NCBI GenBank assembly: GCA_965277805.1
Contig: OZ255842.1
Span: forward strand, 1,632,001-1,696,000
Reading direction: 5' to 3'
DNA: 64,000 nt
Source: Candidatus Lustribacter sp.
Lineage (GTDB): Bacteria > Vulcanimicrobiota > Vulcanimicrobiia > Vulcanimicrobiales > Vulcanimicrobiaceae
Shown here: in pieces, positions 25,917 through 62,681 of the stretch
How positions within the stretch are numbered: position 1 is the stretch's first letter
How the letters are laid out: each line of letters starts with the position of its first letter
Position numbers and translations under genes: made by a program
Notes under the pieces: model-generated
Seen by the model: only the letters and a program-made list of their open reading frames with translations
Databases searched by the model: none
Told to the model about the DNA's origin: nothing

Positions 25917-26972
25917 TCAACCGCGCGGGCCTTTGTAGGGGCCGAGCTCCTTGAGCACGTCGTTGAGGATCGACTCGTCGACGACGTCTTCGACCTTCAC
26001 GTTGCCGTCGATCAACCCTTGATCTTTGAAGTATTGGAGATCTTTGCGCATGCTCGCGACGTTGAGCTTGCCGTCCGGGTCGATCGAACCGGGCGTCATG
26101 TTCTTGTACGCTACCGGGTCTTTGACGTTGGTTGCCGCGCTCAGGATCGAGATCACGTCGGCGGCATTCGGGCCGGCGAAGTGGCCGCCGTGCAGCGCAC
26201 CCACGTAGTACCGCGCGGCGCGCAAATACGCGCGCATGAACTTCCGGGCGAGATCGCGGTGTTCGCGAATGAAGGCGCCGCCGAAGATCAGCACCGAGAT
26301 TTCCTGGTTCGGATACCATGCGTCATCGCCCATGATGCGCGTCGCGCTGCCCGAGAGGACGGCTTGCGAGGCTTGCGGTTCGGTCGTGATGCTGGCGTCG
26401 ACGCGGCCGTTCTCGAGCGCCGCGACGTGATCGGGATAATCGAGGTTCACGCGCTTGACGTCGCTGAACGTCAGGCCGTACTTCTTCAGCAGCTCGAAGA
26501 GCGCCACGGTCGAGACGCTGCCGGGCTGGTTGCCTGCGATCGTCATGCCCTTGAGATCTTTGGGCGATTTATAGCGGCCGCTCTTGACCAAATCGGTGCG
26601 CACGAGTAGCGGATCGAAACCGTAGCCGGCCGTGTCCGAGGCGCGGTCGGCTACGACCTTGACGTCGATCCCATGCGCGGCCGCGTTGTAGATGCCGACC
26701 GCCGGCGCACCGCCGCCCGCGTCGAGTTGACCGCTGCTGAGCGGAACCACCATATCGCCGGCCGAGGCGAACGTCGTGAAGGTGATGTTGAGCCCTTCGT
26801 CCTTGAAGTACCCCTTCTTGTCGGCGATCAGAAACGGCGCGTCGCTGCCGACGTTGAGCACGCCGACGCGAACCGTGACGGCATCGGCACCGCGCACCGA
26901 ACCCGACGGCGCGAGCGCCGCCAAGAGACCGGCCGCGAGCGCTGCCGCCACGATTCGCCGCACCCGGATCAC
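25917..26972 (-). CDS. NitT/TauT-type ABC substrate-binding protein
   Basis: Signal peptide; IADKKGYFKDEGL, KDLKGMTIA, GRVDA..EP. Confidence 0.85.
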   Translation of the reverse strand: MIRVRRIVAAALAAGLLAALAPSGSVRGADAVTVRVGVLNVGSDAPFLIADKKGYFKDEGLNITFTTFASAGDMVVPLSSGQLDAGGGAPAVGIYNAAAHGIDVKVVADRASDTAGYGFDPLLVRTDLVKSGRYKSPKDLKGMTIAGNQPGSVSTVALFELLKKYGLTFSDVKRVNLDYPDHVAALENGRVDASITTEPQASQAVLSGSATRIMGDDAWYPNQEISVLIFGGAFIREHRDLARKFMRAYLRAARYYVGALHGGHFAGPNAADVISILSAATNVKDPVAYKNMTPGSIDPDGKLNVASMRKDLQYFKDQGLIDGNVKVEDVVDESILNDVLKELGPYKGPRG

Positions 26973-29738: not shown

Positions 29739-30785
29739 TCACTTGCGTTTTTTGCTCGCGGCGGCGATCAGGGTATTGTCGATCATCGTTGCCGTGGCGA
29801 CCTTGTTCTTCAGCAGGCCTTGCGACAACCAGAAATCCTCGGGAACTTGGATCGATTCGGGGCGTACGGCGCCGATTTCGAAATACGGCGGCTGGAGCTT
29901 TGCCATTTCCGCGAGTGGCCTTTGCTGCCAGGCGGCCAGAGTCTTTTGCACGTCCGGGGAGAACGCGTTCGATCCGCTCTTACGAATCTCGTCCTGCGCC
30001 CGAATCGAGGCGCGCAGAAAGGCCGTCACGGCCGGCGCGTTGCTTGCCAGATATTTCGCGGACGCTAGCACGAACCCGGTTTGTGTATTAGGCATGATGT
30101 CTTGCGTCGAAGCGAAGCGCGCCGCGAAACCGCCGTCGACCATATACGTCGCCGTCGGTTCGATCGTTGTGCCCAAGTCGATTGCCTGATTGCGCAGCGC
30201 CGTAATCATGTCGGCGGGGGTCCGCAAGCGCTCGGTATAAACGACGTCGGCGCGCGTCAACCCGGCTTTGACGAGCATCTGGTTGACCAGCAGATTGATC
30301 GGCGCGCCCGGAGTCGCGGCATCGATCTTGCGCCCGCGCAAATCGGAGAGCTTGCGCACCGCGCCCGAATCCCACAAGTCCTTGCGCACCATGACCCACA
30401 GTTCGTCGTGCCAGCCGGTACGCGCAACGGTCAGCGATGCGATCGCTTTGATGTCCCAGCCTTCGCTCACCTGATTGAAGAGCGCCGGCCCCGGCACGCC
30501 TTGGCCGATATCGAGTTGCCCGTTCACCAGCATCGGCAACTGCGTCAGCGACGACGACGAGAACTTGTTGGGAACGACGTTGAGCCCTTCGTCGGCATAG
30601 TAGCCTTTGTCGAGCGCGTACATGAAGGGCAGGTAGCCGTAGATATCCGGATTGACCGGAATCCGGATCGTGTACTTCGCATCGGCCGCGAAGAGCCGCC
30701 GCGGGCGCCCGAGCGCCGCTAGACCGAAAGCAACTGCAGAACCCGCAAACGCGCGCCGTGTGCCCACGCCCAGGGGTACGACCAT
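29739..30785 (-). CDS. NitT/TauT-type ABC substrate-binding protein with Tat-like signal
   Basis: TRRAFAGSAVAFGLAA; ALDKGYYADEGL; DLRGRKI. The longer ORF-track start is antisense to the ferredoxin. Confidence 0.82.
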   Translation of the reverse strand: MVVPLGVGTRRAFAGSAVAFGLAALGRPRRLFAADAKYTIRIPVNPDIYGYLPFMYALDKGYYADEGLNVVPNKFSSSSLTQLPMLVNGQLDIGQGVPGPALFNQVSEGWDIKAIASLTVARTGWHDELWVMVRKDLWDSGAVRKLSDLRGRKIDAATPGAPINLLVNQMLVKAGLTRADVVYTERLRTPADMITALRNQAIDLGTTIEPTATYMVDGGFAARFASTQDIMPNTQTGFVLASAKYLASNAPAVTAFLRASIRAQDEIRKSGSNAFSPDVQKTLAAWQQRPLAEMAKLQPPYFEIGAVRPESIQVPEDFWLSQGLLKNKVATATMIDNTLIAAASKKRK

Positions 30786-30806
30786 AGGGTTCGAAATCCA
30801 TCGCCC

Positions 30807-31133
30807 ATGGACGAACCGGCATTCGCACGCGTGGGCGCACTCTCCGGTCTGCCGCCCGGAGCAGCGCTGATGGCGCCGGTCGGCGATTATGACATCGCGC
30901 TGTTCAACGTCGATGGTGAAATCTTCGCGATTGACGACGTGTGTCCGCATTTCGCCGGCTCGCTGCACGAAGGTGCGGTAATCGACGGCACGGTGTCGTG
31001 TCCGCTGCACGGCTGGTGCTTCGATCTGCGGAGCGGTGCGCAAACGAACGGCCGCCGTTTCGTCGACACGTTCGACGTGCGCGTCGAAGATCAGAACGTG
31101 CTCGTGAGCGCGACGCCGCGCGAGCGAGTGTAG
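30807..31133 (+). CDS. Rieske [2Fe-2S] ferredoxin
   Basis: CPH...CPLHGWCFDLRSG. Confidence 0.92.
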   Translation: MDEPAFARVGALSGLPPGAALMAPVGDYDIALFNVDGEIFAIDDVCPHFAGSLHEGAVIDGTVSCPLHGWCFDLRSGAQTNGRRFVDTFDVRVEDQNVLVSATPRERV

Positions 31134-31136
31134 CGC

Positions 31137-32066
31137 GTGCCCTTGAAACTTGCCGTTCCCGATCTGATCTCGAACTCGTACTTTCCGGCGGCGGCCGCGG
31201 TCGAGTTGGGCTTCTTCGAGCAGGCCGGACTCGACGTCGAACTCGAGCTGATCTTCCCGGTCGATAAGTGCTATGCGGCGCTGCGCGACGGCCGCATCGA
31301 TTTCGTCGGGGGCTCGGCGCACTCGGCGCTCGCCGCGTTCCCGGGGTGGGACGGCGTCAAGCTGCTGTGCGCGCAGGCCCAGGGCATGTACTGGTTTCTG
31401 ATCATGCGCTCCGACCTCAACGTCAAACGCGGCGACATCGAGGCCGTCAAAGGCAAGCGTATCGGCGCCGCACCGTGGGTCGAAATGGGTTTGCGCCGGC
31501 TCTTGATTGCGGCCGGCATCGATCTCAAGCGCGACGAGGTGACGATCCAGCCCGTGCCCGGCGCGATCGGCGAGAAAGCAAACTTTGGGCTGATGGCGGC
31601 GCAGGCGCTCGCCGACGGCAAGATCGACGGTTTCTGGGCCAACGGCATGGGCGCGGAAGTCGCGCAGCGCAGCGGCGCGGGCACGCTGGTGCTCGACATC
31701 CGCCGCGGCGACGGCCCACCCGAGTGCTTCAATTACACGATGGCCTCGGTGGCCGCAAGCGATGCGCTAATCGAGCGTTCGCCCGAAACCGCGCGCGCTG
31801 CCGTTCGCGCGATCGTTGCGACCCAGCGCGCGCTGATCGGCGACGTTTCGCTTGCGACGAAGGCCGGCCGCGCGCTCTTCCCAGCGACCGAAGCGGAACT
31901 GATCGCCGGCATCGTGCAACGCGACTTGCCGTATTACGATGCCGCGATTTCGCCCGAGTTCGTGGCCGGCATGAACGCCTTCGCGCGCGACATCGGCATC
32001 CTCGACCGCGAGGTCTCTTATGACGCCGTCGTTGCAAGCGGCGTCCGCGAACTCTGGAAGGGCTAG
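31137..32066 (+). CDS. NMT1/THI5-like binding-protein-fold protein with no signal peptide
   Basis: AVELGFFEQAGLDVEL, GKRIGA, GKIDGFW; begins directly with the domain (MPLKLAVPD). Confidence 0.8.
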   Translation: MPLKLAVPDLISNSYFPAAAAVELGFFEQAGLDVELELIFPVDKCYAALRDGRIDFVGGSAHSALAAFPGWDGVKLLCAQAQGMYWFLIMRSDLNVKRGDIEAVKGKRIGAAPWVEMGLRRLLIAAGIDLKRDEVTIQPVPGAIGEKANFGLMAAQALADGKIDGFWANGMGAEVAQRSGAGTLVLDIRRGDGPPECFNYTMASVAASDALIERSPETARAAVRAIVATQRALIGDVSLATKAGRALFPATEAELIAGIVQRDLPYYDAAISPEFVAGMNAFARDIGILDREVSYDAVVASGVRELWKG

Positions 32067-38317: not shown

Positions 38318-39639
38318 TAATTCAGGCCCGTTCTCCCGCCGATCAGACGCGATTTAGAGTAGCGATCGTGCAGTTGCATGCGCCGCACGAGACCGAACAA
38401 GAGCGGCACCACGAGAAAGACGCAGCAGAGCGCGAGGAAGTAGCGCCAAATGCTTTGCGCGATCCCGACCCGGCCATGATCGAGCCGAACGACACGCAGA
38501 TCGAGCACCATCATGCCGACCGTCCGGCCGGCGATCGCGACGAGGGCAGCCGCATACGGAAAATACCCGAGCCACGCATTGTCCTGGATGTAGTTTTTCA
38601 AGTCGGGCCAGTTGAGAATGTGCCAGTTGAAGAGCACGAACTTTGTGTGAACGCCGGGAGCGATCGAATCGCCCGGACTCGCGTTACCAACCGAAACGTT
38701 TACCGCGTGAAAGATCACCGAGAGAATCGTCACATCGATGGCAAATGCAAGGAAGCGCCGCAACCCTGAAGCCAGCTCCCGACGATCAACCGGTCCGTCG
38801 CTGGGTCCGAGCGCGGCGCGCACCGGCAACGGATCGCGCTCGAAGCGATCCATCCAATAGCGATAGGTGTCGGACGCGACGAACGTTTCAAGCGCGCGCA
38901 CGCGGTTGACCGCGTAGGGCATCATGCCGGTCAGCTCGCCCAGCCGGAGCGTGAGGTCCGATTCGATGTCGCGACGCTGATCCGCCAACACGGCGGCCTC
39001 AACGTGCCGCCCGCTGGCATGAAAGGTCGAGATCGCGATCGCTTTGACCGCCGCCTCGATCGGCGCGCATAAGAGGCCCGCGCGATCGGCCGAATATTCC
39101 GTCTGCCGTATCCACGCACCGAAGAGCGATGCGATGATCGGGTTGCTGCGGCCCGTCGCATTGATCAGCGAGAGCAACCGCGTGTTGCCGCCCGCGATGT
39201 GTCCGAGTTCGCGGCCGATCATGAACGCGAGTTCATCGGGTCCGAACAGCTGCAAGTATTGACTCGAGATCACGAGCGCGTAGGGTTCGCCGAGTCCGAC
39301 GCTATTCACCGGCACGAAGTAATCGTTGCTGATGAACACCAGGGGCGGCGCGATCCCGAGCCGGCGCGCGAGGCGTTCGACCGTGTCGGCAACGAGCGGA
39401 AACTCCTCGCGCCGCGCGCGGATGCTGCTCCCCAGCAGCCGGCCGCGGGTGAGCGAGACGAACACCATTCCAAAGACGAATAGCAGCGCGACTTGAGTCG
39501 GCGTGATGCCGTGGAAAACGAAGCCGATCACGACCAGCGTGATCGGGACGGTCAGCAAGAGCGAGAGTGCGACCTTGCGTTCGCGAGGGACCCGAATGGA
39601 CGTCCAACCCGAGAACAGCCCATCGACGCGAGCGGCCAT
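38317..39639 (-). CDS. M48 peptidase-like domain (degenerate zinc site) fused to a C-terminal RDD domain
   Basis: DELAFMIGRELGHI and EYSADRAG; RRFLAFAID...GRTVGMMVLDLRVV..HDRYS (RDD). Confidence 0.8.
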   Translation of the reverse strand: MAARVDGLFSGWTSIRVPRERKVALSLLLTVPITLVVIGFVFHGITPTQVALLFVFGMVFVSLTRGRLLGSSIRARREEFPLVADTVERLARRLGIAPPLVFISNDYFVPVNSVGLGEPYALVISSQYLQLFGPDELAFMIGRELGHIAGGNTRLLSLINATGRSNPIIASLFGAWIRQTEYSADRAGLLCAPIEAAVKAIAISTFHASGRHVEAAVLADQRRDIESDLTLRLGELTGMMPYAVNRVRALETFVASDTYRYWMDRFERDPLPVRAALGPSDGPVDRRELASGLRRFLAFAIDVTILSVIFHAVNVSVGNASPGDSIAPGVHTKFVLFNWHILNWPDLKNYIQDNAWLGYFPYAAALVAIAGRTVGMMVLDLRVVRLDHGRVGIAQSIWRYFLALCCVFLVVPLLFGLVRRMQLHDRYSKSRLIGGRTGLN

Positions 39640-39700
39640 GAGCGATCCTTCACGCCGTGCCTGGAGGGCCCTTGCACGGGCGTGGAGGATTCGTACGAGG

Positions 39701-40621
39701 ATGAAACATGTGTTCTTTGCTCTCATCCTTGCCTTCGGCGTGCCGGGCGCTGCGCTCGCGCAAACGCTGCCGACGGTGAAAGTCGCCACCACGCCGATCG
39801 ACGTGGGCGCCGAGGTCCTCTACGCGAAGGACATGGGCTTCTTCCAAAAGCACGGGCTCAATGTCGACGTGCAGTTCATCGACAACGGCGCGGCAATCGC
39901 ATCCGCCGTGGCCTCGGGTGCGATCGACATCGCCCAAGGCAACGTCGTCACGCTCGCCACGGCGCACGACAAGGGCTTACCGTTCGTCGTCGTAGTGCCC
40001 GCCGCGCTCTACTCGAGCACTGCGCCGACGAGCGCGCTGATCGTCGCCGCGAATGGCCCGATCAAATCGGCCAAAGATCTCAACGGCAAAACCGTCGGAA
40101 TCACCGGCGTCAAGAACATCACCCAGATCGCCGCGATGGCGTGGATCGATCAGAACGGAGGCGACTCGAGCACCGTCAAGTTCATCGAGCTGAAGTTCTC
40201 CGAAATGGGACCGGCAGTATTGGCCGGACGCATCGACGCGGGCGTTACCGCCGAACCCGACTTGAGCGAAGCTGTCGCTGCCGGCACGGTGCGCATCCTC
40301 GCACCGGTCTACAATGCCGTCGCTCCGACGTTCATCATCGGTGCGTGGTTTGCAACCAGCGATTGGGTGAAGGCGCACGCCGACATCGTGTCGCGCTACG
40401 TCGCCGCCATCAACGAAGCCGGCGCCTGGGCCAACAAGAATCAGCCCGCATCGGCGAAGATCCTCGAGAAATATACCAAAGTCGAAGCGAAGCCGGGCAT
40501 GAAGCGCGTGCTCTTCCCGGAAAAAAGCGATCTCGCCCTGATGCAACCCGCAATCGACGCCACCGCCAAATATAAAGTCATCAAAGCGAGCTTCCCGGCA
40601 AGCGACCTAGCCGCCAAGTAG
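39701..40621 (+). CDS. NitT/TauT-type ABC substrate-binding protein
   Basis: Signal peptide MKHVFFALILAFGVPGAALA; YAKDMGFFQKHGL, KDLNGKTVG, GRIDA; paralogous to 17853 and 59087. Confidence 0.87.
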   Translation: MKHVFFALILAFGVPGAALAQTLPTVKVATTPIDVGAEVLYAKDMGFFQKHGLNVDVQFIDNGAAIASAVASGAIDIAQGNVVTLATAHDKGLPFVVVVPAALYSSTAPTSALIVAANGPIKSAKDLNGKTVGITGVKNITQIAAMAWIDQNGGDSSTVKFIELKFSEMGPAVLAGRIDAGVTAEPDLSEAVAAGTVRILAPVYNAVAPTFIIGAWFATSDWVKAHADIVSRYVAAINEAGAWANKNQPASAKILEKYTKVEAKPGMKRVLFPEKSDLALMQPAIDATAKYKVIKASFPASDLAAK

Positions 40622-53105: not shown

Positions 53106-53134
53106 ATTGTAGACCCCCCTCCAACCCTTGTCAA
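53106..53134 (-). promoter_or_regulatory. Sigma-70 promoter of the yceD-rpmF-fab-ffh-rpsP operon
   Basis: Minus strand TTGACA-N17-TACAAT. Confidence 0.85.
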
Positions 53135-53206: not shown

Positions 53207-53818
53207 GTGACGAGCATCGCGTCGGTCGCCTTCGGCCCCCAAATCGTCGCCGCTGCCCAACGCAACGGCCTCGACCCCGCCCTACTGGCCGCAGTCGCCG
53301 CTCAAGAGACGGGCGGACCGGGCTCGAATTCGGGTGCCAACGTCGTCGGCGACGGCGGGCACGGCCACGGCATCTTCCAGATCGACGACCGCTACCACGC
53401 CTTCGCGTCCACCTCGGCCGCGATGGACCCGGCGAAAAACGCCAACTACGCGGCCGGCATGCTCTCGGGATTGCTCCAGAAGTACGGAGGTAATGTGCAC
53501 GCAGCGCTCTCGGCCTATAACGCCGGCTCGCCCTCAGCGACCGGCACGGCCACGAACTGGGGCGGCACCACCCTCGGGTACGCCGACTCGGTGCTGGCGC
53601 ACTACAGCCAACTCACAAGTACCGCCCGCGACGCCGCCATGCCCGAACTCTCGACAACGAGCGAGTCCGTCAACCAACTCGCGAGCCTGGCTTCGTCCAA
53701 TAGCGTCGCCGGCAGTGCCGTGGCGGCGCCCTCCTTGCCGGCAACGCAGCAGCATCAATCGGCCGCGCCGCCGGCCTTCAACGAAGATTTCTACGCCGAC
53801 GGCGACGACGCCGGTTAA
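53207..53818 (+). CDS. Lytic transglycosylase (SLT domain) with Ser/Ala-rich, acidic-ending tail and no obvious signal peptide
   Basis: AAQRNGLDPALLAAVAAQE (catalytic Glu), GIFQI, ALSAYNAG, YADSV. Confidence 0.88.
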   Translation: MTSIASVAFGPQIVAAAQRNGLDPALLAAVAAQETGGPGSNSGANVVGDGGHGHGIFQIDDRYHAFASTSAAMDPAKNANYAAGMLSGLLQKYGGNVHAALSAYNAGSPSATGTATNWGGTTLGYADSVLAHYSQLTSTARDAAMPELSTTSESVNQLASLASSNSVAGSAVAAPSLPATQQHQSAAPPAFNEDFYADGDDAG

Positions 53819-53830
53819 CGAGGAGCAGCA

Positions 53831-54202
53831 ATGGGATTTAATCCGCTAGGGATGATCGTCGGGGCCGCAACCGGCTTCCTGACCGGCGGCCCGGTCGGCG
53901 CAGCGATCGGCGGCGCGACCGGCGCCATCGGCGGCACCAACAACGCCACATCCGTCGTCGGCAACCTCGGCAATACCGCCGCCAGCGGCTGGCAAAGCAG
54001 CATCCTCGCCATGCAAAACCTCCAAAATGAGCAGAACGCGATCTATAGCTTACAGATCAACCAGCAAGCCTCGCAATTCAACAACATGATGGACGAAAAA
54101 TCCGAAATGATGCGCGAAAGCAATGCCCTCCGCGACGTCGCCCTCGAACAAAAGAAAGCCGACACCCAAGTGATGAAGAAATTCATCGAGTCAATCAATT
54201 GA
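53831..54202 (+). CDS. Hypothetical protein: glycine-zipper N-terminus plus helical C-terminus
   Basis: GAGGAG ribosome-binding site; GMIVGAATGFLTGGPVGAAIGGATGAIGG; Gln/Asn/Met-rich helix. Confidence 0.8.
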   Translation: MGFNPLGMIVGAATGFLTGGPVGAAIGGATGAIGGTNNATSVVGNLGNTAASGWQSSILAMQNLQNEQNAIYSLQINQQASQFNNMMDEKSEMMRESNALRDVALEQKKADTQVMKKFIESIN

Positions 54203-54513
54203 TCGCCCTAAACCCGGCACCCCTCATCACGCGCCCCGTGAAGCCTGTCACCCCGAGCAAAGTCGAGGGGCCGCCACAATCGCCATCACTCGAGGACCGC
54301 ATCGACGCATCCGTCGATGCCGCACTCGCCGAGGCCCTGGCAAAAGTAAAGACGCCCGCCGATGACGCCCTGGCAAAACAACAGCAAGCCTTCGATCAGA
54401 TGATGCAGCTGCGCACCGAGCAAGAACGCGAAGCCAACGCCATCCGCGAGTTCGGCCTAGCCCAGCAGAAAAAAGAGAACGACTTCCTGACCGAATACAT
54501 CCGCATGATCTAA
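54199..54513 (+). CDS. Hypothetical helical protein, C-terminal paralog of 53831..54202
   Basis: TTGA overlap with the upstream stop; 14 of 40 residues identical, ungapped, to the upstream protein's C-terminus (hand alignment). Confidence 0.78.
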   Translation: MIALNPAPLITRPVKPVTPSKVEGPPQSPSLEDRIDASVDAALAEALAKVKTPADDALAKQQQAFDQMMQLRTEQEREANAIREFGLAQQKKENDFLTEYIRMI

Positions 54514-54551
54514 ACCGGAACCAACGCGCAGCGGCTCGAACCATAGGTGCG

Positions 54552-54788
54552 ATGGCGAATCCACGCGGCGACACAACCGCAAAGATGAACAGCCTGGTGG
54601 TCTATTGGTGCGGCACCGTCTATTTTATCATTGAGGCAGCCTACCACTGGTTCGGACAGCATAACGCTATCAAGGCGCTCGGCGATCTCCTGGGCGCAGT
54701 CATCGGCCTATTTCTTGTCTGGTACGGCGGCTATATCTGGGGAAGCCTCAAACGCGCCTTCGACGGACGGCGTACCCCTAAAGCGTAA
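54552..54788 (+). CDS. Small membrane protein with two predicted TM helices
   Basis: AGGTG before ATG; hydrophobic SLVVYWCGTVYFIIEAAY and LLGAVIGLFLVWYGGYIW; basic C-terminus. Confidence 0.65.
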   Translation: MANPRGDTTAKMNSLVVYWCGTVYFIIEAAYHWFGQHNAIKALGDLLGAVIGLFLVWYGGYIWGSLKRAFDGRRTPKA

Positions 54789-56109
54789 ACCGGCTCGACG
54801 GGCGCTCGAGTCCGTAATGTTCGCGTAGCGTCGTACCCGAGTACTCACGGCGGAACACGCCGCGTTGCTGGAGGATCGGGACAACGTAGTCGACGACGTC
54901 GGTTAAGCCGCCGGGAAGTTCCGCGGGCATGATGTTGAAGCCGTCGGCGGCGCCGCGCTCGACCCAATCGATCATGTGGTCGGCGACTTGTTCGGGCGTT
55001 CCGGCCACCACGCGATGCCCGGCGGCGGCGGCGAAACGGCGCAACAGGTTGCGCAGCGTCAGGTCCGGTTCGCGTTCGAGCAGATCGAACGTGAGCTGCG
55101 CGCGGCTTTTCGCGCCTTCGATCTCCTTCGGACGCGGCAATGCGTGCACCGGCACCGGCTCGTCGAGTGGGAAAGCACTGAAATCCACGCCGTTGAACCG
55201 CTGCGAGAGCGTGATCAGTCCGAGTTCCGGAATGGTGAGCTCGTTGAGTTCTTGTTCCATCGCCTTCGCCTCGGCTTCCGTTGAGCCAATGATGGGGCAT
55301 AGGCCCGGCAAGATCGAGATCTTGCTCGCATCACGGCCCAAGGCCGTCGCCCGCGTCTTGATGTCGTTATAGAAGGCCTGTGCCTCGCCGAGGTCTTGTT
55401 GTGCGGTGAAGATTGCCTCGGCGTACGTTGCCGCGAACGCGCGCCCGTCATCCGACGATCCCGCTTGAACGAGCAGCGGCCGGCCTTGAGGCATCCGCGG
55501 GATGTTGAACGGCCCGTTCACATCGAACGCGGCGCCGTGATGATCGATCCGGTGGACCCGGCTCGTGTCGACATAAACGCCGCGCTCGCGATCGATGACG
55601 GTCGCGTCGTCTTCCCAGCTGTCCCAGAGTTTCATGACGACATCGAGGTACTCGGTCGCGCGCGCATAGCGCTCCGTATGCGAGGTCAGTTTCACCATCC
55701 CGAAATTGCCGGCCGCATTCGCATCCCACGAGGTGACGATGTTCCAGCCGGCGCGGCCTTTGCTGAGATGATCGAGCGATGCGAACTGGCGTGCCAGGTT
55801 GTAAGGCTCGGTATATGTCGTCGATTGCGTAGCGACCAGACCAATGCGCTCGGTACACGTCGTCAGCGCAGCCAGCAGCATCATCGGATCGAAACGGCCC
55901 TCGGCCCGGTAGCGCACGTTGCCGATCGCCAGCCTGTCGCCGAGGAAGAACGAATCGAACTTACCGCGTTCGGCCGCCTGCGCGATTTCCTGATAATAGG
56001 TCAGATCACCCAACCGCTCGGGCTGGGTACGGCGAAAACGCCACGCCGCTTCGTGGTGTCCGGCGTTGGCGGTGAAAATGTTGAGATGCAGGTTCGGTTT
56101 TTGCGCCAT
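54778..56109 (-). CDS. LLM-class flavin-dependent monooxygenase (NtaA/SnaA/DszA family)
   Basis: AERGKFDSFFLGD, STTYTEPYNLARQFASLDHLSKGRAGWNIVTS, QAGSS, LQQRGVFR. Confidence 0.93.
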   Translation of the reverse strand: MAQKPNLHLNIFTANAGHHEAAWRFRRTQPERLGDLTYYQEIAQAAERGKFDSFFLGDRLAIGNVRYRAEGRFDPMMLLAALTTCTERIGLVATQSTTYTEPYNLARQFASLDHLSKGRAGWNIVTSWDANAAGNFGMVKLTSHTERYARATEYLDVVMKLWDSWEDDATVIDRERGVYVDTSRVHRIDHHGAAFDVNGPFNIPRMPQGRPLLVQAGSSDDGRAFAATYAEAIFTAQQDLGEAQAFYNDIKTRATALGRDASKISILPGLCPIIGSTEAEAKAMEQELNELTIPELGLITLSQRFNGVDFSAFPLDEPVPVHALPRPKEIEGAKSRAQLTFDLLEREPDLTLRNLLRRFAAAAGHRVVAGTPEQVADHMIDWVERGAADGFNIMPAELPGGLTDVVDYVVPILQQRGVFRREYSGTTLREHYGLERPSSRFTL

Positions 56110-57182
56110 CAGTGCGGGGACGTGTAGGCCTTGGCGCGCCGCACGATCGATCCGGCGTCGAAGCGGTTGAAATCATCGACAAATTGGTTGGTGTAGAGCG
56201 TGTCGAGTTTTGGATCGACCGTAATCAAGCCGCCGGCTTTGAGCGCGGTGATCTCCGCCGTCCAATCTTTATCGCTGAAGATGCCCCACTTCTTCGGCTC
56301 GCCCGGCTGCCATTGCGTCATGTGCTGCAAGCGGACGAGCAAGATCGGCAGCATCTCCTTCATCCCGTCGGCGTCGCTCCCCGGCGGCTTCAACTCCGGA
56401 TAGTGCCGCCAAAGCGAGCGCAGACATTCCGGCGGATTGGCGTTGCACGCAACGGTACCCTCAGCCGCGATCCTTCCGAACTTGCCGACGAGATCCGGCC
56501 GCTCACGGATCATCTTGTTGGTCACCGGAAACGCGTGGCTCGAGACGCCGTCGAACTCGGGCGGATACTTTAACACCCGCACCGGCGTGCCGTCATTACG
56601 CAGCTTGGCATTGGTGATATCGAAGAGGTTGAGCGCGTCGATCTTGCCCGAACGCAATGCCTCGAACGCCGTCGCTCCGGTGCCGACCGCAACGAACTGG
56701 ACGCTATTCGGGTCAACGCCGACTTTCTTGAGCACCGCTTCGGTCATCGGCGTACCGCCGAACGTCAACGCACCGACGCCGATCGTCTTGCCGGCCAGAT
56801 CCTTGACCGACTTAATCGGGCTTTTGTCGAGCACGGAGATTTCCCAGATCGAATTGCGCGCCGAGTTGTAGACGAACCGAAAGTCGAAGTCCGGTTTGCC
56901 GGGCTGACGCGAGATGATCAACGGGTCGAGCGTGCTGAACGTCGTGAAGAGCGAACCCTTCATCAACTGCGGCAGAATCACGCCCGAGCCGTCGAGCGCA
57001 ACGGTGGAGATCGTGATGTTCTCTTGGCTGATCAGACCAAGATCTTCGGCAAATGTGAACGGCGCATACCCGACCGAGACCGGACCCGACCAGGCGAACG
57101 CGACCGTTTCGGGTCCGGCCGCTCGCGCCGGCATCAACCCCACCACGAGCAACGCGAAGATGAGGGCAAAGCGGCGATACAT
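56109..57182 (-). CDS. NitT/TauT-type ABC substrate-binding protein
   Basis: Signal peptide; SPIKSVKDLAGKTIGVG, GKIDA. Confidence 0.85.
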   Translation of the reverse strand: MYRRFALIFALLVVGLMPARAAGPETVAFAWSGPVSVGYAPFTFAEDLGLISQENITISTVALDGSGVILPQLMKGSLFTTFSTLDPLIISRQPGKPDFDFRFVYNSARNSIWEISVLDKSPIKSVKDLAGKTIGVGALTFGGTPMTEAVLKKVGVDPNSVQFVAVGTGATAFEALRSGKIDALNLFDITNAKLRNDGTPVRVLKYPPEFDGVSSHAFPVTNKMIRERPDLVGKFGRIAAEGTVACNANPPECLRSLWRHYPELKPPGSDADGMKEMLPILLVRLQHMTQWQPGEPKKWGIFSDKDWTAEITALKAGGLITVDPKLDTLYTNQFVDDFNRFDAGSIVRRAKAYTSPH

Positions 57183-57258
57183 GGCGCCTCTTTTCCGAAA
57201 ACCGGGGTCGGGCGCCTTTCAGCACGGGACCCGTTAGCGGGTCAGCGAAATAACGCGC

Positions 57259-58596
57259 ATGCTCGCTTCGCCGCCGCTCCCGTACGTCGATCTCGATGCG
57301 CTGATCGTTGATGATCCCGGGCGTGGTGCGTTCCACGTCCGCAAGGATGTCTTCACGGATCAGGCGGTTTTCGATCTCGAAATGATGCGGATCTTTGAGG
57401 GCACCTGGATCTTCATCGGGCTCGCGAGCCAGGCACCGGCACCAAATGACTTCTTCACCTTCACCATCGGCCGCCAACCGGTGCTCGTCAGCCGCGGCAC
57501 CGACGGTGTATTGCGGTGCTTCTTCAACAGCTGCCGTCACCGCGGGGCGCTGATCTGCTCGCTCGCGCAGGGCAGCGCGCCTTCGCACGTCTGCCGCTAC
57601 CACGGCTGGTCGTATGACGGCGCCGGCAAAAACATCGGCATCACGGCGCAACGCGACGGCTGCTACCCGGAATCGTTCGCTACCGCGAACCACGATTTGA
57701 TTCCGGTTCCGAAATTCGAAGAATACCGCGGCTTCCTGTTCGCTAGCCTCAATCCCGACGTTCCCTCGCTCGAAGAACACTTGGGAGGCGCACGGACATT
57801 CCTCGACACGATCGCCGATCAAAGCCCCGACGGCATCGAGTTCGTCCCCGGCGCCGTGCGCTACAGCGTCGACGCAAACTGGAAAGTCAGCGTTGAAAAC
57901 GCGCTCGATTCGTACCACTTCTCATCGACGCACCGGTCGTATTCGCAGATCATCGAAGAGCGCAAGAATCACGGACGCGAGGCGGCTACGAAGCTGTTGG
58001 AGGACGAGCCGCTTCATCGCGGGACGTTCCTTTTCGATCGCGGGCACGCGGTGCTTTGGCGCAACCGCAACAGCGGCACAGGAACGCGGCCGTTGCTGCT
58101 CGAGCCGGGGCGCCTCGAAGCCACTCGCGCTCGGATCGGGGAGCTGCGCACGAAGTGGATTATGATCAGCCGGAGCATCACCGTCTATCCGAATCTGCAA
58201 ATCGTCGATATCAGTTCGATCCAGTTCCGCATCGTCCAGCCGCTGGCACCCGGATTGACTGAGATCACCTCGTACTGTGCGATCCCGATCGGGGAGAGCG
58301 CCGCCGCGCGCCGGACGCGAATTCGGGAATATCAGGACTTCTTCAATCCCAGCGGGCTCGCGACGGCCGACGACAACCAGATGTTCGAACGCTCGCAGGC
58401 CGGCTACAGTGCGAATCCGACCGAGAAGAATTTTGGCTACTTACGAGGCATGGCTACCGACCATTCCGTCGCCAGCGCGCATGCCGCAGAAGTGGGCGTC
58501 TCGCCGGACCGCGCCGTAGAGGGTCCACTCGGTTTGGGCGACGAGACGGCGATTCAGAACACCTATCGCGAGTGGTACCGCTTGCTGCGCGGCTAG
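57259..58596 (+). CDS. Rieske aromatic ring-hydroxylating dioxygenase alpha subunit (benzoate/anthranilate-like)
   Basis: CRHRG...CRYHGW, ANWK..ENALDSYH..TH, GLATADD. Confidence 0.92.
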   Translation: MLASPPLPYVDLDALIVDDPGRGAFHVRKDVFTDQAVFDLEMMRIFEGTWIFIGLASQAPAPNDFFTFTIGRQPVLVSRGTDGVLRCFFNSCRHRGALICSLAQGSAPSHVCRYHGWSYDGAGKNIGITAQRDGCYPESFATANHDLIPVPKFEEYRGFLFASLNPDVPSLEEHLGGARTFLDTIADQSPDGIEFVPGAVRYSVDANWKVSVENALDSYHFSSTHRSYSQIIEERKNHGREAATKLLEDEPLHRGTFLFDRGHAVLWRNRNSGTGTRPLLLEPGRLEATRARIGELRTKWIMISRSITVYPNLQIVDISSIQFRIVQPLAPGLTEITSYCAIPIGESAAARRTRIREYQDFFNPSGLATADDNQMFERSQAGYSANPTEKNFGYLRGMATDHSVASAHAAEVGVSPDRAVEGPLGLGDETAIQNTYREWYRLLRG

Positions 58597-58597
58597 A

Positions 58598-59086
58598 TCA
58601 TAAGCAGAAGTATTCGAGCAATCCCGGAATCCGGTCGTTGATCAGAACGATCTTCTTGCTTGCGATACACCAGCGGTTGCCGGTTCGTCGCAACTCATGT
58701 TCGTAGCGGCCACAGGCCACCGAAAGTTTTCCGGATGACGGATGATAGACGTGCGTGATGAACGGCGAAGTCGCGAAAACGCCGGTCTCACTTTCGGCGC
58801 CGAAGACCGGCTGCCCAACCACGTGTGAGGTTCGCGGCATCGGCATGGTGATGACCGACTGATCCGTCCGCAAACGCGCGACCCGTTCTTCGAGCCCAGC
58901 ACGGGAGTCGTGGTAGAGAAAAGAGATCTCCCGGTCCGGGTCGGCGGTCAATTCGCGCTCGCTACGCCAGGCCGGAACCCAGAACACGCAGTCCTCTGCG
59001 AAATGTGCGAGCCAATCGTCCCAGCGACGTTCGTCGATTGCTAATGCTTCGCTGAATATGATATCGGCGGCTGCGGTACTCGGCAT
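58598..59086 (-). CDS. Ring-hydroxylating dioxygenase beta subunit
   Basis: EALAIDERRWDDWL..FWVPAW, LEERV.RL, PRTSH, KKIVLIND. Confidence 0.9.
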   Translation of the reverse strand: MPSTAAADIIFSEALAIDERRWDDWLAHFAEDCVFWVPAWRSERELTADPDREISFLYHDSRAGLEERVARLRTDQSVITMPMPRTSHVVGQPVFGAESETGVFATSPFITHVYHPSSGKLSVACGRYEHELRRTGNRWCIASKKIVLINDRIPGLLEYFCL

Positions 59087-60061
59087 CTAGCGCGGCGAGC
59101 GAAGCGCGGTCGGACTGATCAGATCGTTGGCTGAAAAGCCGGTTGGGATCAAGCCGTAGCGAACCGCCACGTCGATGAGCGGCTGCACGTCCCGTGGCGT
59201 GACGTACTCACCCGCGGTCGCACGGTTGCTGTTCGCGATGACGGAAGCCGGAATGCCCGAATAGGAAGCGACGAGGTCGACGGTCTCCGGCAGATGCGCG
59301 TTCGTATAGACGATCGACTCGTGCATCGCTCGTCCGAAGCGGGACATCGTGTCGCGATTCGCGTCGATGTATTCCTTGGTTGCGACGAAGACCGAGGCGT
59401 AGAAGTGCTTCGCGAGCGCGTCGTAGGATTTGGACAAAATACGGGCACTTCCGGACGCTACCGCTTGGTCGAGAAATGGTGGAGTGGTCGTCACGCCCTC
59501 GATGCGGCCTTCGGTCAATGCCGGGAGCAAGGCGGCCACCGGGAGTTCGATGACTTTCACCGTTTTTGAGTCACCGCCGTTCTGGTCGATCCAGGCCAAG
59601 GTCGCTAGGGCATTGAGGTCTTTGAGCGCGAGCGACGCGATGGTCTTGCCGTTGAAATCGGCCCCCGTTTTAATCGGAGAATCCTTGCGCACGAGCAGGC
59701 CCGCTGTCGGCGCGTCGGTCGTATACGCTTGCGCCGGCGCAACGATCTGGAAGTTGATGCCACGCGCGTGGGCCTCGATCACACCGAAGAGGCTGGTGAA
59801 CGCCACTTGGATCGACCCGCCGACGAGTGCGGACAGCGCTGCCGTGCCGCTGTTGATAATCGTCGGCGTTACGTCCAAGCCGTACTTGCGAAAAATGCCC
59901 GCTTGCCGCGCGTAATACACGGTCTTGTATGAATCGATCGGACTGCCGCCGACGGTTACCTGCGTGAGCGTTTGCCCCCGCGCCGAGAGCGGGACGGCTG
60001 CGCCTGCGGCGCTGAGTACGGCCGCCGCACCACGGCAAAATCCCAAACGTTTCACGTACAC
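59087..60061 (-). CDS. NitT/TauT-type ABC substrate-binding protein
   Basis: Signal peptide; YARQAGIFRKYGL, DFNGKTIA, WIDQNGGD. Confidence 0.85.
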   Translation of the reverse strand: MYVKRLGFCRGAAAVLSAAGAAVPLSARGQTLTQVTVGGSPIDSYKTVYYARQAGIFRKYGLDVTPTIINSGTAALSALVGGSIQVAFTSLFGVIEAHARGINFQIVAPAQAYTTDAPTAGLLVRKDSPIKTGADFNGKTIASLALKDLNALATLAWIDQNGGDSKTVKVIELPVAALLPALTEGRIEGVTTTPPFLDQAVASGSARILSKSYDALAKHFYASVFVATKEYIDANRDTMSRFGRAMHESIVYTNAHLPETVDLVASYSGIPASVIANSNRATAGEYVTPRDVQPLIDVAVRYGLIPTGFSANDLISPTALRSPR

Positions 60062-60099
60062 AGCAGCTTATTAGCGCGCAAAATCCAAGCGTTCCTTCG

Positions 60100-60471
60100 C
60101 TAACGCAGGTTGAGGATCGGGATATCCTTGACTGCTTTGTCGGGCTTGATCGATTGCAAATAGGCGATGATATCCGCCGCTTGTGCGTTGCTCAGCACGA
60201 CCGTCGTGTATGGCGGCATGTTCTGCGCCGGATGACGCAACTGCCGCATGATCAAATTGGCCGGGATCGGATGCGGCGCCAACTTCGGACCGGCCCGTCC
60301 GCCGCCTTGACCGAACGTGCCGTGACACAGGTAGCAGTTCTCCGCCATGAACGTAGCCTTGCCTCTGACCGGATCGCCGGCCGCGACGGTGCTTTGTGCG
60401 CCGGCGTCTGAGACGAACGAGAACGTCAGGAATGCGGTCAGCCAAAGACGCGCGATCGTTGAGTGCATCAT
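60100..60471 (-). CDS. Monoheme cytochrome c (exported)
   Basis: Signal peptide, CYLCH, distal MPPY; GGGAG ribosome-binding site. Confidence 0.9.
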   Translation of the reverse strand: MMHSTIARLWLTAFLTFSFVSDAGAQSTVAAGDPVRGKATFMAENCYLCHGTFGQGGGRAGPKLAPHPIPANLIMRQLRHPAQNMPPYTTVVLSNAQAADIIAYLQSIKPDKAVKDIPILNLR

Positions 60472-60479
60472 CTTCTCCC

Positions 60480-62438
60480 TCACCGGCCCTGCGCGACCAC
60501 GTCGACAAGGGCGGGTTCGCCGCGCTTCACCTGGGCGACCGCACGCGCTAAGGCGGGGCCGAGGTCGTTCGGATTCGTAATCGGCCCCTCGCTGTAGACG
60601 CCCATCGCATTTGCGAGCTTCGCGAAATTGATGTTCGGGTCGGTGAGCGTGGTCCCGATCAGCGTACGGCCCACGCCGCGCTGGCGCCGGTTCGCCACCT
60701 GCTGCAGCGCCATGATCTCCTGGTGATACGCGCGATTGTTGTGCATCACGTAAAGCAATGGGATTTTGTGGTGCGCCGCGGTCCACAGAACGCCGTTGGC
60801 GACCATGAGATCGCCGTCGGGCTGGATGCACACGCTCAAACGGCCGTACTTGCGATTGGCGAGGGCCGCACCGAGACTCGCGGGCGCGCAGTACCCAACG
60901 CCGAACGCACCGGCATCGCCGATGTACTGGTAGTGTTTGTCGGCGTTCCAGAGTTGCTGCGGCCAGCGATACTGAAAATCGACGCCCGACACGAGCGACC
61001 AATCGTCGTTGCGCACCGCGGCGTAGACTTCAGCACACAGCCGCGCGACGGTGATCGGGGAATCATCCCAGCCCACCGCGGCCGCCTGCCGCGAGGCGGC
61101 GAGCGCGGCAAGATGCGCATCCGCGAACGCTTTCGCACGCGCATCGAAAACGCGCCGCCGATCCGGCGTGATGAGGCTGCGACAAGCTTCGATCAGCGCC
61201 GGCAACGTGGCCTCGGCATCGCCGGCGATCGGCAGATCGACGTCGAGGTAGCGCTCGAAATCCTGGAAATTCGACTTCATGTAGAGCTGGTTGCTGCTGA
61301 TCGAGATCGTCTTTGCACCGGGCTGCAGCCGCGAGCGCGTTTCTTCCTCGCGCGGGCTGACGAAGCGCTGCGTCGTGCCCCAAAAGTCCGTCATCTCGAG
61401 ACCGACGACGAGATCGGCCGCGCCGACGATCGAGGTCTGCGAGGTGCTCTGGTTGAGCGGGTGACGCCACGGGACGTTCATCCGGCCGATGGCGTCGAGA
61501 ATCGGCGCGCCGAGCAGCTCGGCCAGCGCGACGAGGTTCGTCACTCCCGCCGGCGTGCGCGCACATCGATCGGCGATGAGCACGGGATGCTCCGCCGCCA
61601 CGAGCATTTTCGCCGCCGCGGCAACCGCGTTCGCATCGCCTTGCGGGGGCGCGTTCAGCACGAGCTTCGGAATGCGCGGGCGTTTGGAAGGCGGAAGCGG
61701 ATCTTCCTGAAGATCGCTGTCGAGCGTGAGCAGCACCGGCTCGTACGGCGGCGTCATCGCGAATTGATACGCGCGCACGGCCGACTCTGCGAAATGCTGC
61801 GGGCTCGCGGGGGCATCATCCCATTTGGTAAAGTCGCGCACCATCGCGGCAGCGTCTTGCGCCGTATGCTCCCACGGCACGGCCGAACGGCGCTTCGCCA
61901 CGTCGATCTGATTGGCGGTAATCATGAAAATCGCGGCGCGGTCGGCCCACGCGTTGTAGATCGCCATCGAACCATGTTGCAGCCCGACGGCGGTGTGCAT
62001 CATGCACGCCATCGGTTTGCCTTCGATCTTGAAGTAACCGTGCGACATCGCAACCGAGGCTTCTTCGTGCGTGCAGGTGATGAGCTCCATCGAGGGCGCG
62101 TTCACCATCGCGTAGTTGACGATCGACTCGTGCAGCCCGCGGAAGCTCGAGCCGGGCATCGCCGCCACGTACTCGATCCCGAGGTTCTTCATGACATCGA
62201 CCATGAAGTCGCTCACGCACGTCGACTGCGTCAAATCGTCATCCGTTGCCGGCGCGCTGCCGCGCTCACCGGTCGAGGGCGGAACAGCCGGCACGCTCGG
62301 CGGCCGCGCCGGCGGCGTCGCCGGAGGCGTCTGCGCTACGGCGGCCACAGGTGCCGCCACTGCTGCCGAACCGGCCAGCGCTACGCCTTTAAGGAAGCCG
62401 CCACGCCCGACCGATCCGTCGCCCGAACTCTTTGCCAC
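60480..62438 (-). CDS. Thiamine-diphosphate-dependent enzyme (acetolactate synthase/decarboxylase-like) with Tat-like leader
   Basis: PGSSFRGLHES, HEEASVAMSHGY, PDGDLM...HNN (ThDP motif); N-terminal GRGGFLKG plus Ala-rich helix; GGAG before GTG 62438. Confidence 0.88.
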   Translation of the reverse strand: MAKSSGDGSVGRGGFLKGVALAGSAAVAAPVAAVAQTPPATPPARPPSVPAVPPSTGERGSAPATDDDLTQSTCVSDFMVDVMKNLGIEYVAAMPGSSFRGLHESIVNYAMVNAPSMELITCTHEEASVAMSHGYFKIEGKPMACMMHTAVGLQHGSMAIYNAWADRAAIFMITANQIDVAKRRSAVPWEHTAQDAAAMVRDFTKWDDAPASPQHFAESAVRAYQFAMTPPYEPVLLTLDSDLQEDPLPPSKRPRIPKLVLNAPPQGDANAVAAAAKMLVAAEHPVLIADRCARTPAGVTNLVALAELLGAPILDAIGRMNVPWRHPLNQSTSQTSIVGAADLVVGLEMTDFWGTTQRFVSPREEETRSRLQPGAKTISISSNQLYMKSNFQDFERYLDVDLPIAGDAEATLPALIEACRSLITPDRRRVFDARAKAFADAHLAALAASRQAAAVGWDDSPITVARLCAEVYAAVRNDDWSLVSGVDFQYRWPQQLWNADKHYQYIGDAGAFGVGYCAPASLGAALANRKYGRLSVCIQPDGDLMVANGVLWTAAHHKIPLLYVMHNNRAYHQEIMALQQVANRRQRGVGRTLIGTTLTDPNINFAKLANAMGVYSEGPITNPNDLGPALARAVAQVKRGEPALVDVVAQGR

Positions 62439-62535
62439 GCCGATTTCTCCCGTGCTAAAGCGGATTTGGTGAAAACCAGTTCCGCCCAACGAGGCAACCC
62501 CCTGGCCTCTCCAAGTTCGCCTCAGCGGCATTCGA

Positions 62536-62564
62536 TTGACAAGGGGACGCCCGCGACCTACGAT
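62536..62564 (+). promoter_or_regulatory. Sigma-70 promoter for tRNA-Ile
   Basis: TTGACA-N17-TACGAT ending 40 nt upstream of the tRNA. Confidence 0.8.
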
Positions 62565-62604
62565 AACGTGCGTTCCTCGACGGGCTCGGCCCGGCAAAGC
62601 GCGT

Positions 62605-62681
62605 GGGCCATTAGCTCAGTTGGTTAGAGCGCATGCTTGATAAGCATGAGGTCCCTGGTTCGAACCCAGGATGGCCCACCA
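62605..62681 (+). tRNA. tRNA-Ile(GAT), CCA encoded
   Basis: GGGCCATTAGCTCAGTTGGTTAGAGCGCATGCTT-GAT-AAGCATGAGGTCCCTGGTTCGAACCCAGGATGGCCCACCA. Confidence 0.97.

Follow-up and report, generated by a model that had tools for sequence, protein, structure and literature searches.

Three adjoining genes in the window, the whole 64-kb stretch of Candidatus Lustribacter sp. DNA analysed here (contig OZ255842.1), form an operon that is a previously undescribed signature of the phylum Eremiobacterota. They are the first three of four plus-strand open reading frames (ORFs), named g1 to g4 by their order, and coordinates given without a locus name are positions in the window. g1 encodes a muramidase, and g2 and g3 encode small helical proteins that share a C-terminal helix. 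Our tentative reading is that g1-g2-g3 is a housekeeping module of the eremiobacterotal cell envelope, in which the muramidase docks on a membrane-associated pair of g2 and g3 helices. A housekeeping device is most likely when set against an injection needle, and a filament, type III-like or otherwise secreted, is the main rival, although an unlikely one.

The operon and its descent

One genome per species was scanned, and 110 loci were found, nearly all from Vulcanimicrobiota/Eremiobacterota. Eighty of them were kept and analysed as 12-kb loci. When homologues of g2 were searched, 63 clusters were returned, nearly all unnamed, and the sole name bearing an organism was Eremiobacterota. Of the 80 loci, 76 have rpmF and 73 have fabH upstream on the opposite strand, 69 have g1 upstream of g2 and 1 has g4. 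g2 and g3 stand in tandem across the 80 loci and mostly overlap. Of 70 evaluable loci, 46 have a tRNA-Ile(GAT) gene on the same strand at most 400 nt downstream of g3 (median gap 60 nt), and in most others this gene is found further downstream.

Because g4 occurs in 1/80 loci and a lineage-specific insertion precedes tRNA-Ile in the window, the conserved unit is g1-g2-g3. The sequence-only reading, an earlier annotation of this DNA, had described four co-oriented ORFs divergent from the rpmF operon, which is confirmed, and had taken all four for one operon. Its g1-g2-g3 part stands, these genes remaining together across Eremiobacterota, but its g4 part does not.

The three genes descend together with their neighbour FabH. 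Among 55 loci with all four proteins, pairwise distances correlate with FabH distances at Spearman coefficients of 0.52 (g1), 0.69 (g2) and 0.60 (g3 helix), and the observed value was reached by 0 of 500 permutations. The mean pairwise distance of the g1 domain in these loci is 0.296, compared with 0.30 for FabH. Against close relatives, dN/dS is 0.16-0.32 for g1, 0.009-0.135 for g2 and 0.08-0.22 for g3. g1-g2-g3 are vertically inherited core genes under purifying selection, and not a mobile cassette.

Seven kept contigs with other taxon labels show the same gene order. The contigs L013, L020, L061, L065, L075 and L078 and the protein P0326 are labelled Binatia, Limnocylindrales, Acidoferrum/Acidiferrales, Alphaproteobacteria or Verrucomicrobiae. 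In these six contigs the order rpmF-g1-g2 is kept and FabH is 57-69% identical to that of the window; they are probably mis-binned Eremiobacterota.

The muramidase and the two helical proteins

g1 matches the Pfam model SLT (PF01464) over residues 14-108 with E=4.7e-12 (45.9 bits, cut-off 21.3), and its earlier description as a signal-less SLT enzyme is borne out. In sequence searches of the PDB, solely goose-type lysozymes were matched, at 5e-7 with the single sequence. With a profile of 49 orthologues, six goose-type lysozyme sequences were found at 2.1e-7 to 1.4e-3, and no other PDB chain at E≤0.01. All 49 orthologues keep the catalytic Glu (E34), D49, D60, G55/F57/Q58 and Y104-N105-x-G107; in GH23 the two motifs downstream of the catalytic Glu are G-L/F-x-Q and A-Y-N-x-G, and goose-type lysozymes have two aspartates after this Glu. 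The catalytic Glu and the stretch G-D-x-G-x-G-x-G-hydrophobic-x-Q-x-D-x-R-Y-H align between g1 and goose-type lysozymes, and neither varies in the 49 orthologues.

Because of these PDB matches and invariant residues, g1 appears closer to goose-type muramidases than to classical soluble lytic transglycosylases. Judged by its sequence, g1 is a GH23 enzyme of goose-lysozyme type with catalytic residues intact, and its chemistry may be either lysozyme hydrolysis or that of a lytic transglycosylase. Unlike the goose-type lysozymes, g1 is bacterial, is synthesised in the cytoplasm, carries a conserved 70-residue tail and shares its operon with the genes of two dedicated small proteins. In this tail a linker is followed by a short helix-like segment (VNxLxxLA), a segment rich in Pro and an acidic end. 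A homologue search with the g1 domain gave only close orthologues among the 120 matches listed.

There is no room for a signal peptide in g1, because its ORF has no start codon further upstream and the catalytic domain begins at residue 8-14; the orthologues are alike in this. That g1, g2 and g3 all lack a Sec signal, as previously noted, holds by inspection of the sequences.

The C-termini of g2 and g3 are identical at 15 of 47 positions with no gaps (BLASTP, E=1e-7), so the gapless likeness seen by hand in the sequence-only reading is real. The shared segment, or D helix, has roughly 45 residues and ends at the last residue in both proteins. A joint hidden Markov model (HMM) of it finds exactly two ORFs in the window, g2 and g3. 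It finds two ORFs in 76 of the 80 loci and one in the other 4, at least three of which end soon after g2. Across 95 sequences of the helix, E and R never change, while F, E, N, Q, K, I and I hardly do; conservation extends to polar as well as hydrophobic positions. A third fragment of the helix (37 residues, E=7e-9) was observed in one locus, about 0.8 kb downstream of g3 (L061:7356-7466).

The two proteins differ in their other parts. AlphaFold2 (AF2) predicts for g2 (42 sequences, mean pLDDT 68) helices at residues 5-19, 21-33 and 39-122, the last being one 84-residue helix. For g3 (55 sequences), residues 1-30 are predicted disordered, and helix 31-49, a loop and helix 53-103 follow, with pLDDT at or above 95 from residue 61. 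The N-terminus of g3 is Pro/Ala-rich and variable in length, whole orthologues having 47-139 residues, and helix 31-49 is lineage-specific, being confined to some genera and missing in many orthologues. In 66 of 77 sources, the g2 stop and the g3 start overlap, by either 4 nt or 1 nt. g2 and g3 are evidently paralogous and translationally coupled.

The first 35 residues of g2 hold 0-2 charges in the 20 of 78 orthologues listed. Here the GxxxG zipper that had been noticed is present, but a match above the cut-offs of the Pfam glycine-zipper models is not: PF13441 (Gly-zipper_YMGG) scores 16.5 bits (cut-off 28.9) and PF13488 (Gly-zipper_Omp) 15 bits (cut-off 25), with E 0.007-0.024, and each was matched by 1 of 42 g2 members at E≤0.05. 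With these families g2 shares a GxxxG-rich two-helix hairpin; it differs in scoring below their cut-offs, in lacking a lipoprotein signal and in having a long conserved helix that is absent from them. The best 19-residue hydropathy window of g2 averages 1.22, and 1.6, the customary transmembrane threshold, is reached by 5 of 78 orthologues.

The zipper is what suggests that g2 could be a bacteriocin or contact-dependent toxin, with g3 or g4 as its immunity factor, and 1 of 42 g2 members indeed gives a weak match to Bacteriocin_IIc (0.039). Such a toxin, largely refuted by the distribution described above, is very improbable. g1-g2-g3 is a vertically inherited core set, g2 is under strong purifying selection, and no conserved leader peptide, transporter or membrane immunity protein accompanies it. 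The earlier alternative of a toxin with g4 as immunity factor or holin is not supported either, given that g4 is absent from 79 of 80 loci, the locus is a vertically inherited housekeeping one, and PADLOC, phage and plasmid relatives are lacking. A type IV prepilin was considered and set aside, as the M-G-F start has no charged leader and no Glu at +5. Flagellar rod C-terminal domain, FtsB/FtsL, Lpp-type tethers and encapsulation peptides were likewise considered and set aside.

Proteins of the g1-g3 families are acidic and poor in Cys (0.06-0.27%, compared with 0.89% in other proteins of the window). g3 proteins have 0.13% Cys overall, with any Cys in 7 of 77 sequences and none in the g3 of the window. 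An acidic, Cys-poor composition is common in exported proteins.

The shared-helix family counts 231 representatives among 1.84 billion. In the 150 of 231 matches listed, all proteins have 36-274 residues, and the helix is at the extreme C-terminus in nearly all. No match to the shared helix was found in Pfam, NCBIfam, PDB sequences, phage or plasmid records. Run against PDB sequences, the profiles of g2 and of the shared helix gave nothing better than E=0.87. Foldseek gave no match at E≤0.001 for the g2 model against PDB and viral structures or for the g3 model against PDB, a weak test, as the models are mostly single long helices. PADLOC reported 0 families for g1, g2, g3 and g4. For g2, g3 and g4, PHROGs gave nothing beyond weak rows, among them a tape-measure PHROG for g2 (1e-4), and single g2 members have weak Pfam matches to RTX and T7 gp14. 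A tblastn search of 50,697 phage records and of plasmid records found no match to g2 or g3. For longer fused relatives of g2, one weak match was obtained, and the otherwise blank outcome there is weak evidence. No published description of these proteins was found in the Eremiobacterota literature searched. The g2/g3 shared-helix family thus appears to have no described relative.

Module rearrangements and competing readings

The module is rearranged in three ways. First, g1 and g2 are fused in frame in two loci and one protein (L030:4493-5353, L057:5386-6240 and P0125). The order is enzyme domain, short linker, glycine zipper and long helix, and the g1 tail is absent in all three. The fusion junction reads through an apparent former ribosome-binding site and the start of g2.

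Second, an extra small gene stands between g1 and g2 in 11 of 12 wide-gap loci that were translated and read by eye. Its product of about 100 aa starts with a glycine zipper like that of g2 and ends like the g1 tail, and the tail HMM matches it only weakly, in L034, L051 and L066 (E 6e-6 to 2e-3). The extra gene was observed in L026, L034, L049, L051, L056, L061, L063, L066, L068, L076 and L079, and in L080 the same piece may be fused to the enzyme.

Third, 11 loci have no g1 match. One is truncated, and 8 of the 10 inspected by eye keep a small tail-bearing ORF without the enzyme domain. Such tail-only lineages are L002, L005, L018, L028, L029, L040, L045 and L065. Three Velthaea loci are among these forms, with tails that look alike, and the ORF of L002 resembles an in-frame deletion of the enzyme domain.

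The system is thus modular, with enzyme, tail, glycine zipper and shared helix joined in several combinations. The fusions argue that the enzyme and g2 act together, and the tail-only forms show an independent role of the g1 tail.

In the housekeeping reading that we prefer, the shared helix would join g2 to g3 in a coiled coil, and the g2 hairpin would hold this assembly at a membrane. g1 would dock on it via the C-terminal tail that is absent where g1 is fused to g2. The assembly would bring the muramidase to the wall or hold it there, and peptidoglycan would be cut only at a defined place in normal growth. In the way it works, such a module would be akin to the wall-cutting enzymes that envelope machines have for their own use, or to a holin-type route by which signal-less hydrolases are exported.

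Several points weigh against this arrangement. The pairing of g2 with g3 and the docking of the tail are inferred wholly from gene arrangement. The hairpin of g2 has no more than moderate hydrophobicity, helices of 13-15 residues and no flanking positive charges, which makes its stable insertion into the inner membrane doubtful. In some lineages the enzyme domain has been lost while g2, g3 and a tail-only protein are retained, so the core of the system is not the enzyme. The fusions would place the enzyme on the same side of any membrane as the long helix, and the export problem would stay. Moreover, type III pilin and needle families among the named clusters near both small proteins in a language-model search, described next, favour a secreted polymer over a membrane scaffold.

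If secreted, g2 and g3 could be subunits of an extracellular or trans-envelope helical filament, similar to an Hrp pilus or to a needle and rod, which would polymerise via the C-terminal helix. g1 would then be the dedicated enzyme that opens the wall, and a type III-like apparatus with its genes elsewhere would export the three proteins without Sec signals. We regard this as unlikely. Stored homologues of g3 and g2 were used as queries in a feature search of the ESM Atlas, and the 30 nearest clusters, most of them unnamed, were inspected as leads (by the text of the tool, values below 0.9 are leads only). For the g3 homologue the named clusters listed include HrpE (0.91, 180/256 features), HrpA-pilin (0.89, 172/256) and one with 13% T3SS_needle_F (0.83). 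The g2 homologue gave weaker matches, to HrpA-pilin (0.82), a needle-containing cluster (0.79), an HrpE-like one (0.78) and an SseC-containing one (0.75). The two queries are homologous, hence not independent. Even so, it carries some weight that the named neighbours of both belong to pilus and needle families of type III systems.

The layout of g2 and g3 fits as well. Like Hrp pilins, SctF and SctI, they are small, free or nearly free of Cys and signal-less, with variable N-terminal halves, a conserved helix reaching the last residue and tandem paralogues; they are also acidic. On the enzyme side, the best NCBIfam row of g1 is IagB (NF011856), aligned over nearly the whole model, though far below the cut-off (2.7e-5, 23.8 bits, cut-off 208). 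IagB/IpgF/EtgA, VirB1 and HrpH/Hpa2 are, like g1, small single-domain GH23 enzymes encoded beside small structural proteins, and a role of the g1 tail apart from its enzyme domain is reminiscent of VirB1 with its reportedly secreted C-terminal piece. No genes of such a machine lie near g1 (ORFs of the window and recurrent downstream families), and most specialised lytic transglycosylases of envelope machines carry a Sec signal, which g1 does not.

Sequence and fold comparisons speak against the filament. None of 42 g2 and 55 g3 members matches the needle (SctF, PF09392), rod (SctI), HrpA (PF09589) or WXG100 (type VII substrate) models of Pfam at E≤0.05, and HrpE-like gave no row for the 97 members, although the Pfam copy may lack PF28047. 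The PDB profile searches (E<0.8) and Foldseek found nothing. A protomer of SctF or SctI is a helix-turn-helix hairpin of about 80 residues. g2, by contrast, is predicted as a glycine-zipper hairpin with a single 84-residue helix and no needle-type helix-turn-helix. In the g3 of the window, helix 31-49, a loop and helix 53-103 are predicted, but the first of these helices is kept in a few genera only. The anatomy on which the earlier type III-like proposal rested is there, namely a signal-less GH23 enzyme with two paralogues of variable N-termini and conserved C-terminal helix, but the matches to needle, rod or pilin families, to PDB chains or to folds, and type III genes nearby, are not.

Genomic setting adds to these objections. 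No sct, fli or flh family is present among 81 ORFs of the window or 22 representatives of the recurrent downstream families in the 12-kb loci. The locus is a housekeeping one beside a ribosomal-protein promoter and a tRNA gene, and no regulated island. Eremiobacterota are not known to have non-flagellar type III systems. According to PMC9758169, the sole cultured species of the phylum is a diderm with thin peptidoglycan, which is in keeping with the housekeeping reading. It bears type IV and Tad pili but lacks flagella, and a FliN homologue is all that its gene table (Table S8) lists, which counts against a type III exporter. The available text of PMC9259500 names TXSScan in its methods and holds no type III result.

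In its broadest form, this rival would be a helical envelope filament of a kind not seen before, built on the plan of an Hrp pilus and universal in a diderm phylum that is not known to have a type III system. It would have its own goose-type muramidase and tail-bearing adaptors; we again think it unlikely. If true, Eremiobacterota would have either a hidden exporter derived from type III systems or a new way, independent of Sec, to assemble small helical proteins across the envelope.

Export could also proceed in one step, similar to type I secretion. In that case the D helix (on g2 and g3) and the acidic tail (on g1 and on the extra gene product) would serve as C-terminal secretion signals that are not cleaved, and the products would act outside, for example as a bacteriolytic enzyme with helpers. 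Each of the four protein types does end in one of two conserved C-terminal modules, with N-terminal parts that vary, and the helix is at the very end of nearly all of the 150/231 family members listed. The proteins are acidic, Gly-rich and Cys-poor, and no N-terminal signal is seen by inspection. Still, we give this route less weight than the filament and hold it to be improbable. No ABC transporter or membrane-fusion protein is nearby (ORFs of the window and recurrent downstream families), and no immunity or lysozyme-inhibitor gene was seen. The D helix, polar residues included, is far more conserved than type I signals usually are, and the fusions drop the tail without replacement. Vertical inheritance and the housekeeping setting suit a cell-biological role better than a weapon.

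Less probable again is a domesticated phage-type lysis or export cassette for autolysis, or for the release of vesicles or proteins. g1 would be its endolysin, g2 a holin- or spanin-like protein, g3 a regulator or spanin partner and g4, in this window, a holin. Here a signal-less muramidase does adjoin small proteins with hydrophobic segments, and on the surface the window fits such a cassette, with an enzyme, an anchor joined to a coiled coil, a Pro-rich protein and a protein of two hydrophobic segments. g1 matches virion-associated and lytic transglycosylase families of PHROGs (1.6e-12 to 1e-7), g2 has the weak tape-measure, RTX and T7 gp14 matches given above, and g3 is Pro-rich, as outer-membrane spanins are. 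Holin-endolysin-spanin systems and holin-dependent ('type 10') export likewise combine a signal-less muramidase, small proteins with short hydrophobic helices and charged helical tails, and would explain how g1 reaches the wall.

These systems differ from the present locus in having phage context, a lipoprotein spanin and a conserved holin. An outer-membrane spanin has a lipoprotein signal and a lipobox cysteine, and g3 has no lipobox cysteine. The g2 hairpin is weakly hydrophobic and stays under transmembrane hydropathy in 73 of 78 orthologues, and g4 is in 1/80 loci only. There is no other phage gene in the window, g2 and g3 have no match in the phage records, and by tblastn g1 found there only four records of one cyanophage (36% identity). 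A fixed site with vertical inheritance across the phylum also speaks against the cassette, and the apparent constitutive placement by a ribosomal-protein promoter is hard to square with a lethal holin.

Surroundings of the operon and its meaning

The features discussed are collected in Table 1. The spacing is +12 nt between g1 and g2, -4 nt between g2 and g3 and +38 nt between g3 and g4. On the opposite strand upstream of g1, and divergent from g1-g4, is yceD-rpmF-fabH-fabD-fabG.

Table 1. Coordinates of the genes, protein segments and neighbouring elements in the window
Feature	Position	Strand	Description
g1	53207-53818	+	203 aa, GTG start
g1 catalytic domain	53228-53605 (about residues 8-133)	+	Pfam SLT, goose-type lysozyme profile
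g1 C-terminal 'B' tail	53606-53815 (residues 134-203)	+	conserved among orthologues
g2	53831-54202	+	123 aa, ATG start
g2 Gly-zipper hairpin	53831-53935 (residues 1-35)	+	uncharged, two short helices
g2 'D' helix	54056-54199 (residues 76-123)	+	conserved C-terminal helix
g3	54199-54513	+	104 aa, TTG start
g3 'D' helix	54370-54510 (residues 58-104)	+	paralogous to g2 'D' helix
g4	54552-54788	+	78 aa, ATG start, hydrophobic segments
yceD-rpmF-fab promoter	53134..53106	-	TTGACA, 17 nt, TACAAT; near-consensus sigma-70-type
Lineage-specific block	54514..62604		8.1 kb between g3 and tRNA-Ile
tRNA-Ile (GAT)	62605..62681	+	usual downstream neighbour of g3, displaced here by insertion

The minus-strand promoter has 11 of 12 matches to the consensus, against 0.2 expected in shuffles. 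Both of its hexamers are visible upstream of g1 in most of about 70 loci, and it is conserved throughout the phylum. Its -35 hexamer overlaps a plus-strand TTGTCA (53128-53133), which may be the -35 of the g1 operon, as inferred from these upstream sequences. The same -35 reads as a weaker -35 on the opposite strand, suggesting a back-to-back promoter pair. A GC-rich inverted repeat was observed between the yceD-rpmF promoter and the yceD start.

The 8.1-kb block downstream of g3 is taken as a lineage-specific insertion because tRNA-Ile usually adjoins g3. By Pfam it contains, besides g4, a luciferase-like monooxygenase, two NMT1-type binding proteins, the alpha and beta subunits of a Rieske dioxygenase and a TPP enzyme. 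L001 and L008 are the only loci in which the monooxygenase and binding protein recur, and there is no integrase among the scanned ORFs of the window. g4, with a best 19-residue hydropathy window of 1.85, is the first gene of this block and lies outside the conserved module. Its only relative in the 80 loci (L001, tblastn, 49% identity) adjoins a g2 that is 99% identical. Between g3 and the g4 homologue, L001, the closest relative, has a 283-aa ORF with a twin-arginine-like N-terminus (L001:6721-7572), which is missing from the window and has no Pfam match.

Two further observations concern the neighbourhood. A family of about 340 aa without Pfam match recurs in 31 loci on the opposite strand downstream of tRNA-Ile, for example at L079:9561-10586 (-). 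The window holds seven NMT1/THI5-like substrate-binding proteins (17853-18791, 25917-26972, 29739-31322, 31137-32066, 39503-40621, 56109-57182 and 59087-60061), an unusual density.

Eremiobacterota are abundant in soils and peat, yet they have a single cultured species and their cell biology is nearly unknown. Two of the three proteins of the module belong to a family without match in Pfam, NCBIfam, PHROGs, PADLOC, PDB sequences or phage and plasmid records. By which route a conserved wall-cutting enzyme without an export signal comes to the wall is the question that the operon raises, and the cultured species makes it testable. If the small proteins are a carrier or scaffold, they would be a new way to control peptidoglycan cleavage; if they are a secreted polymer, they would be a new appendage or export route.

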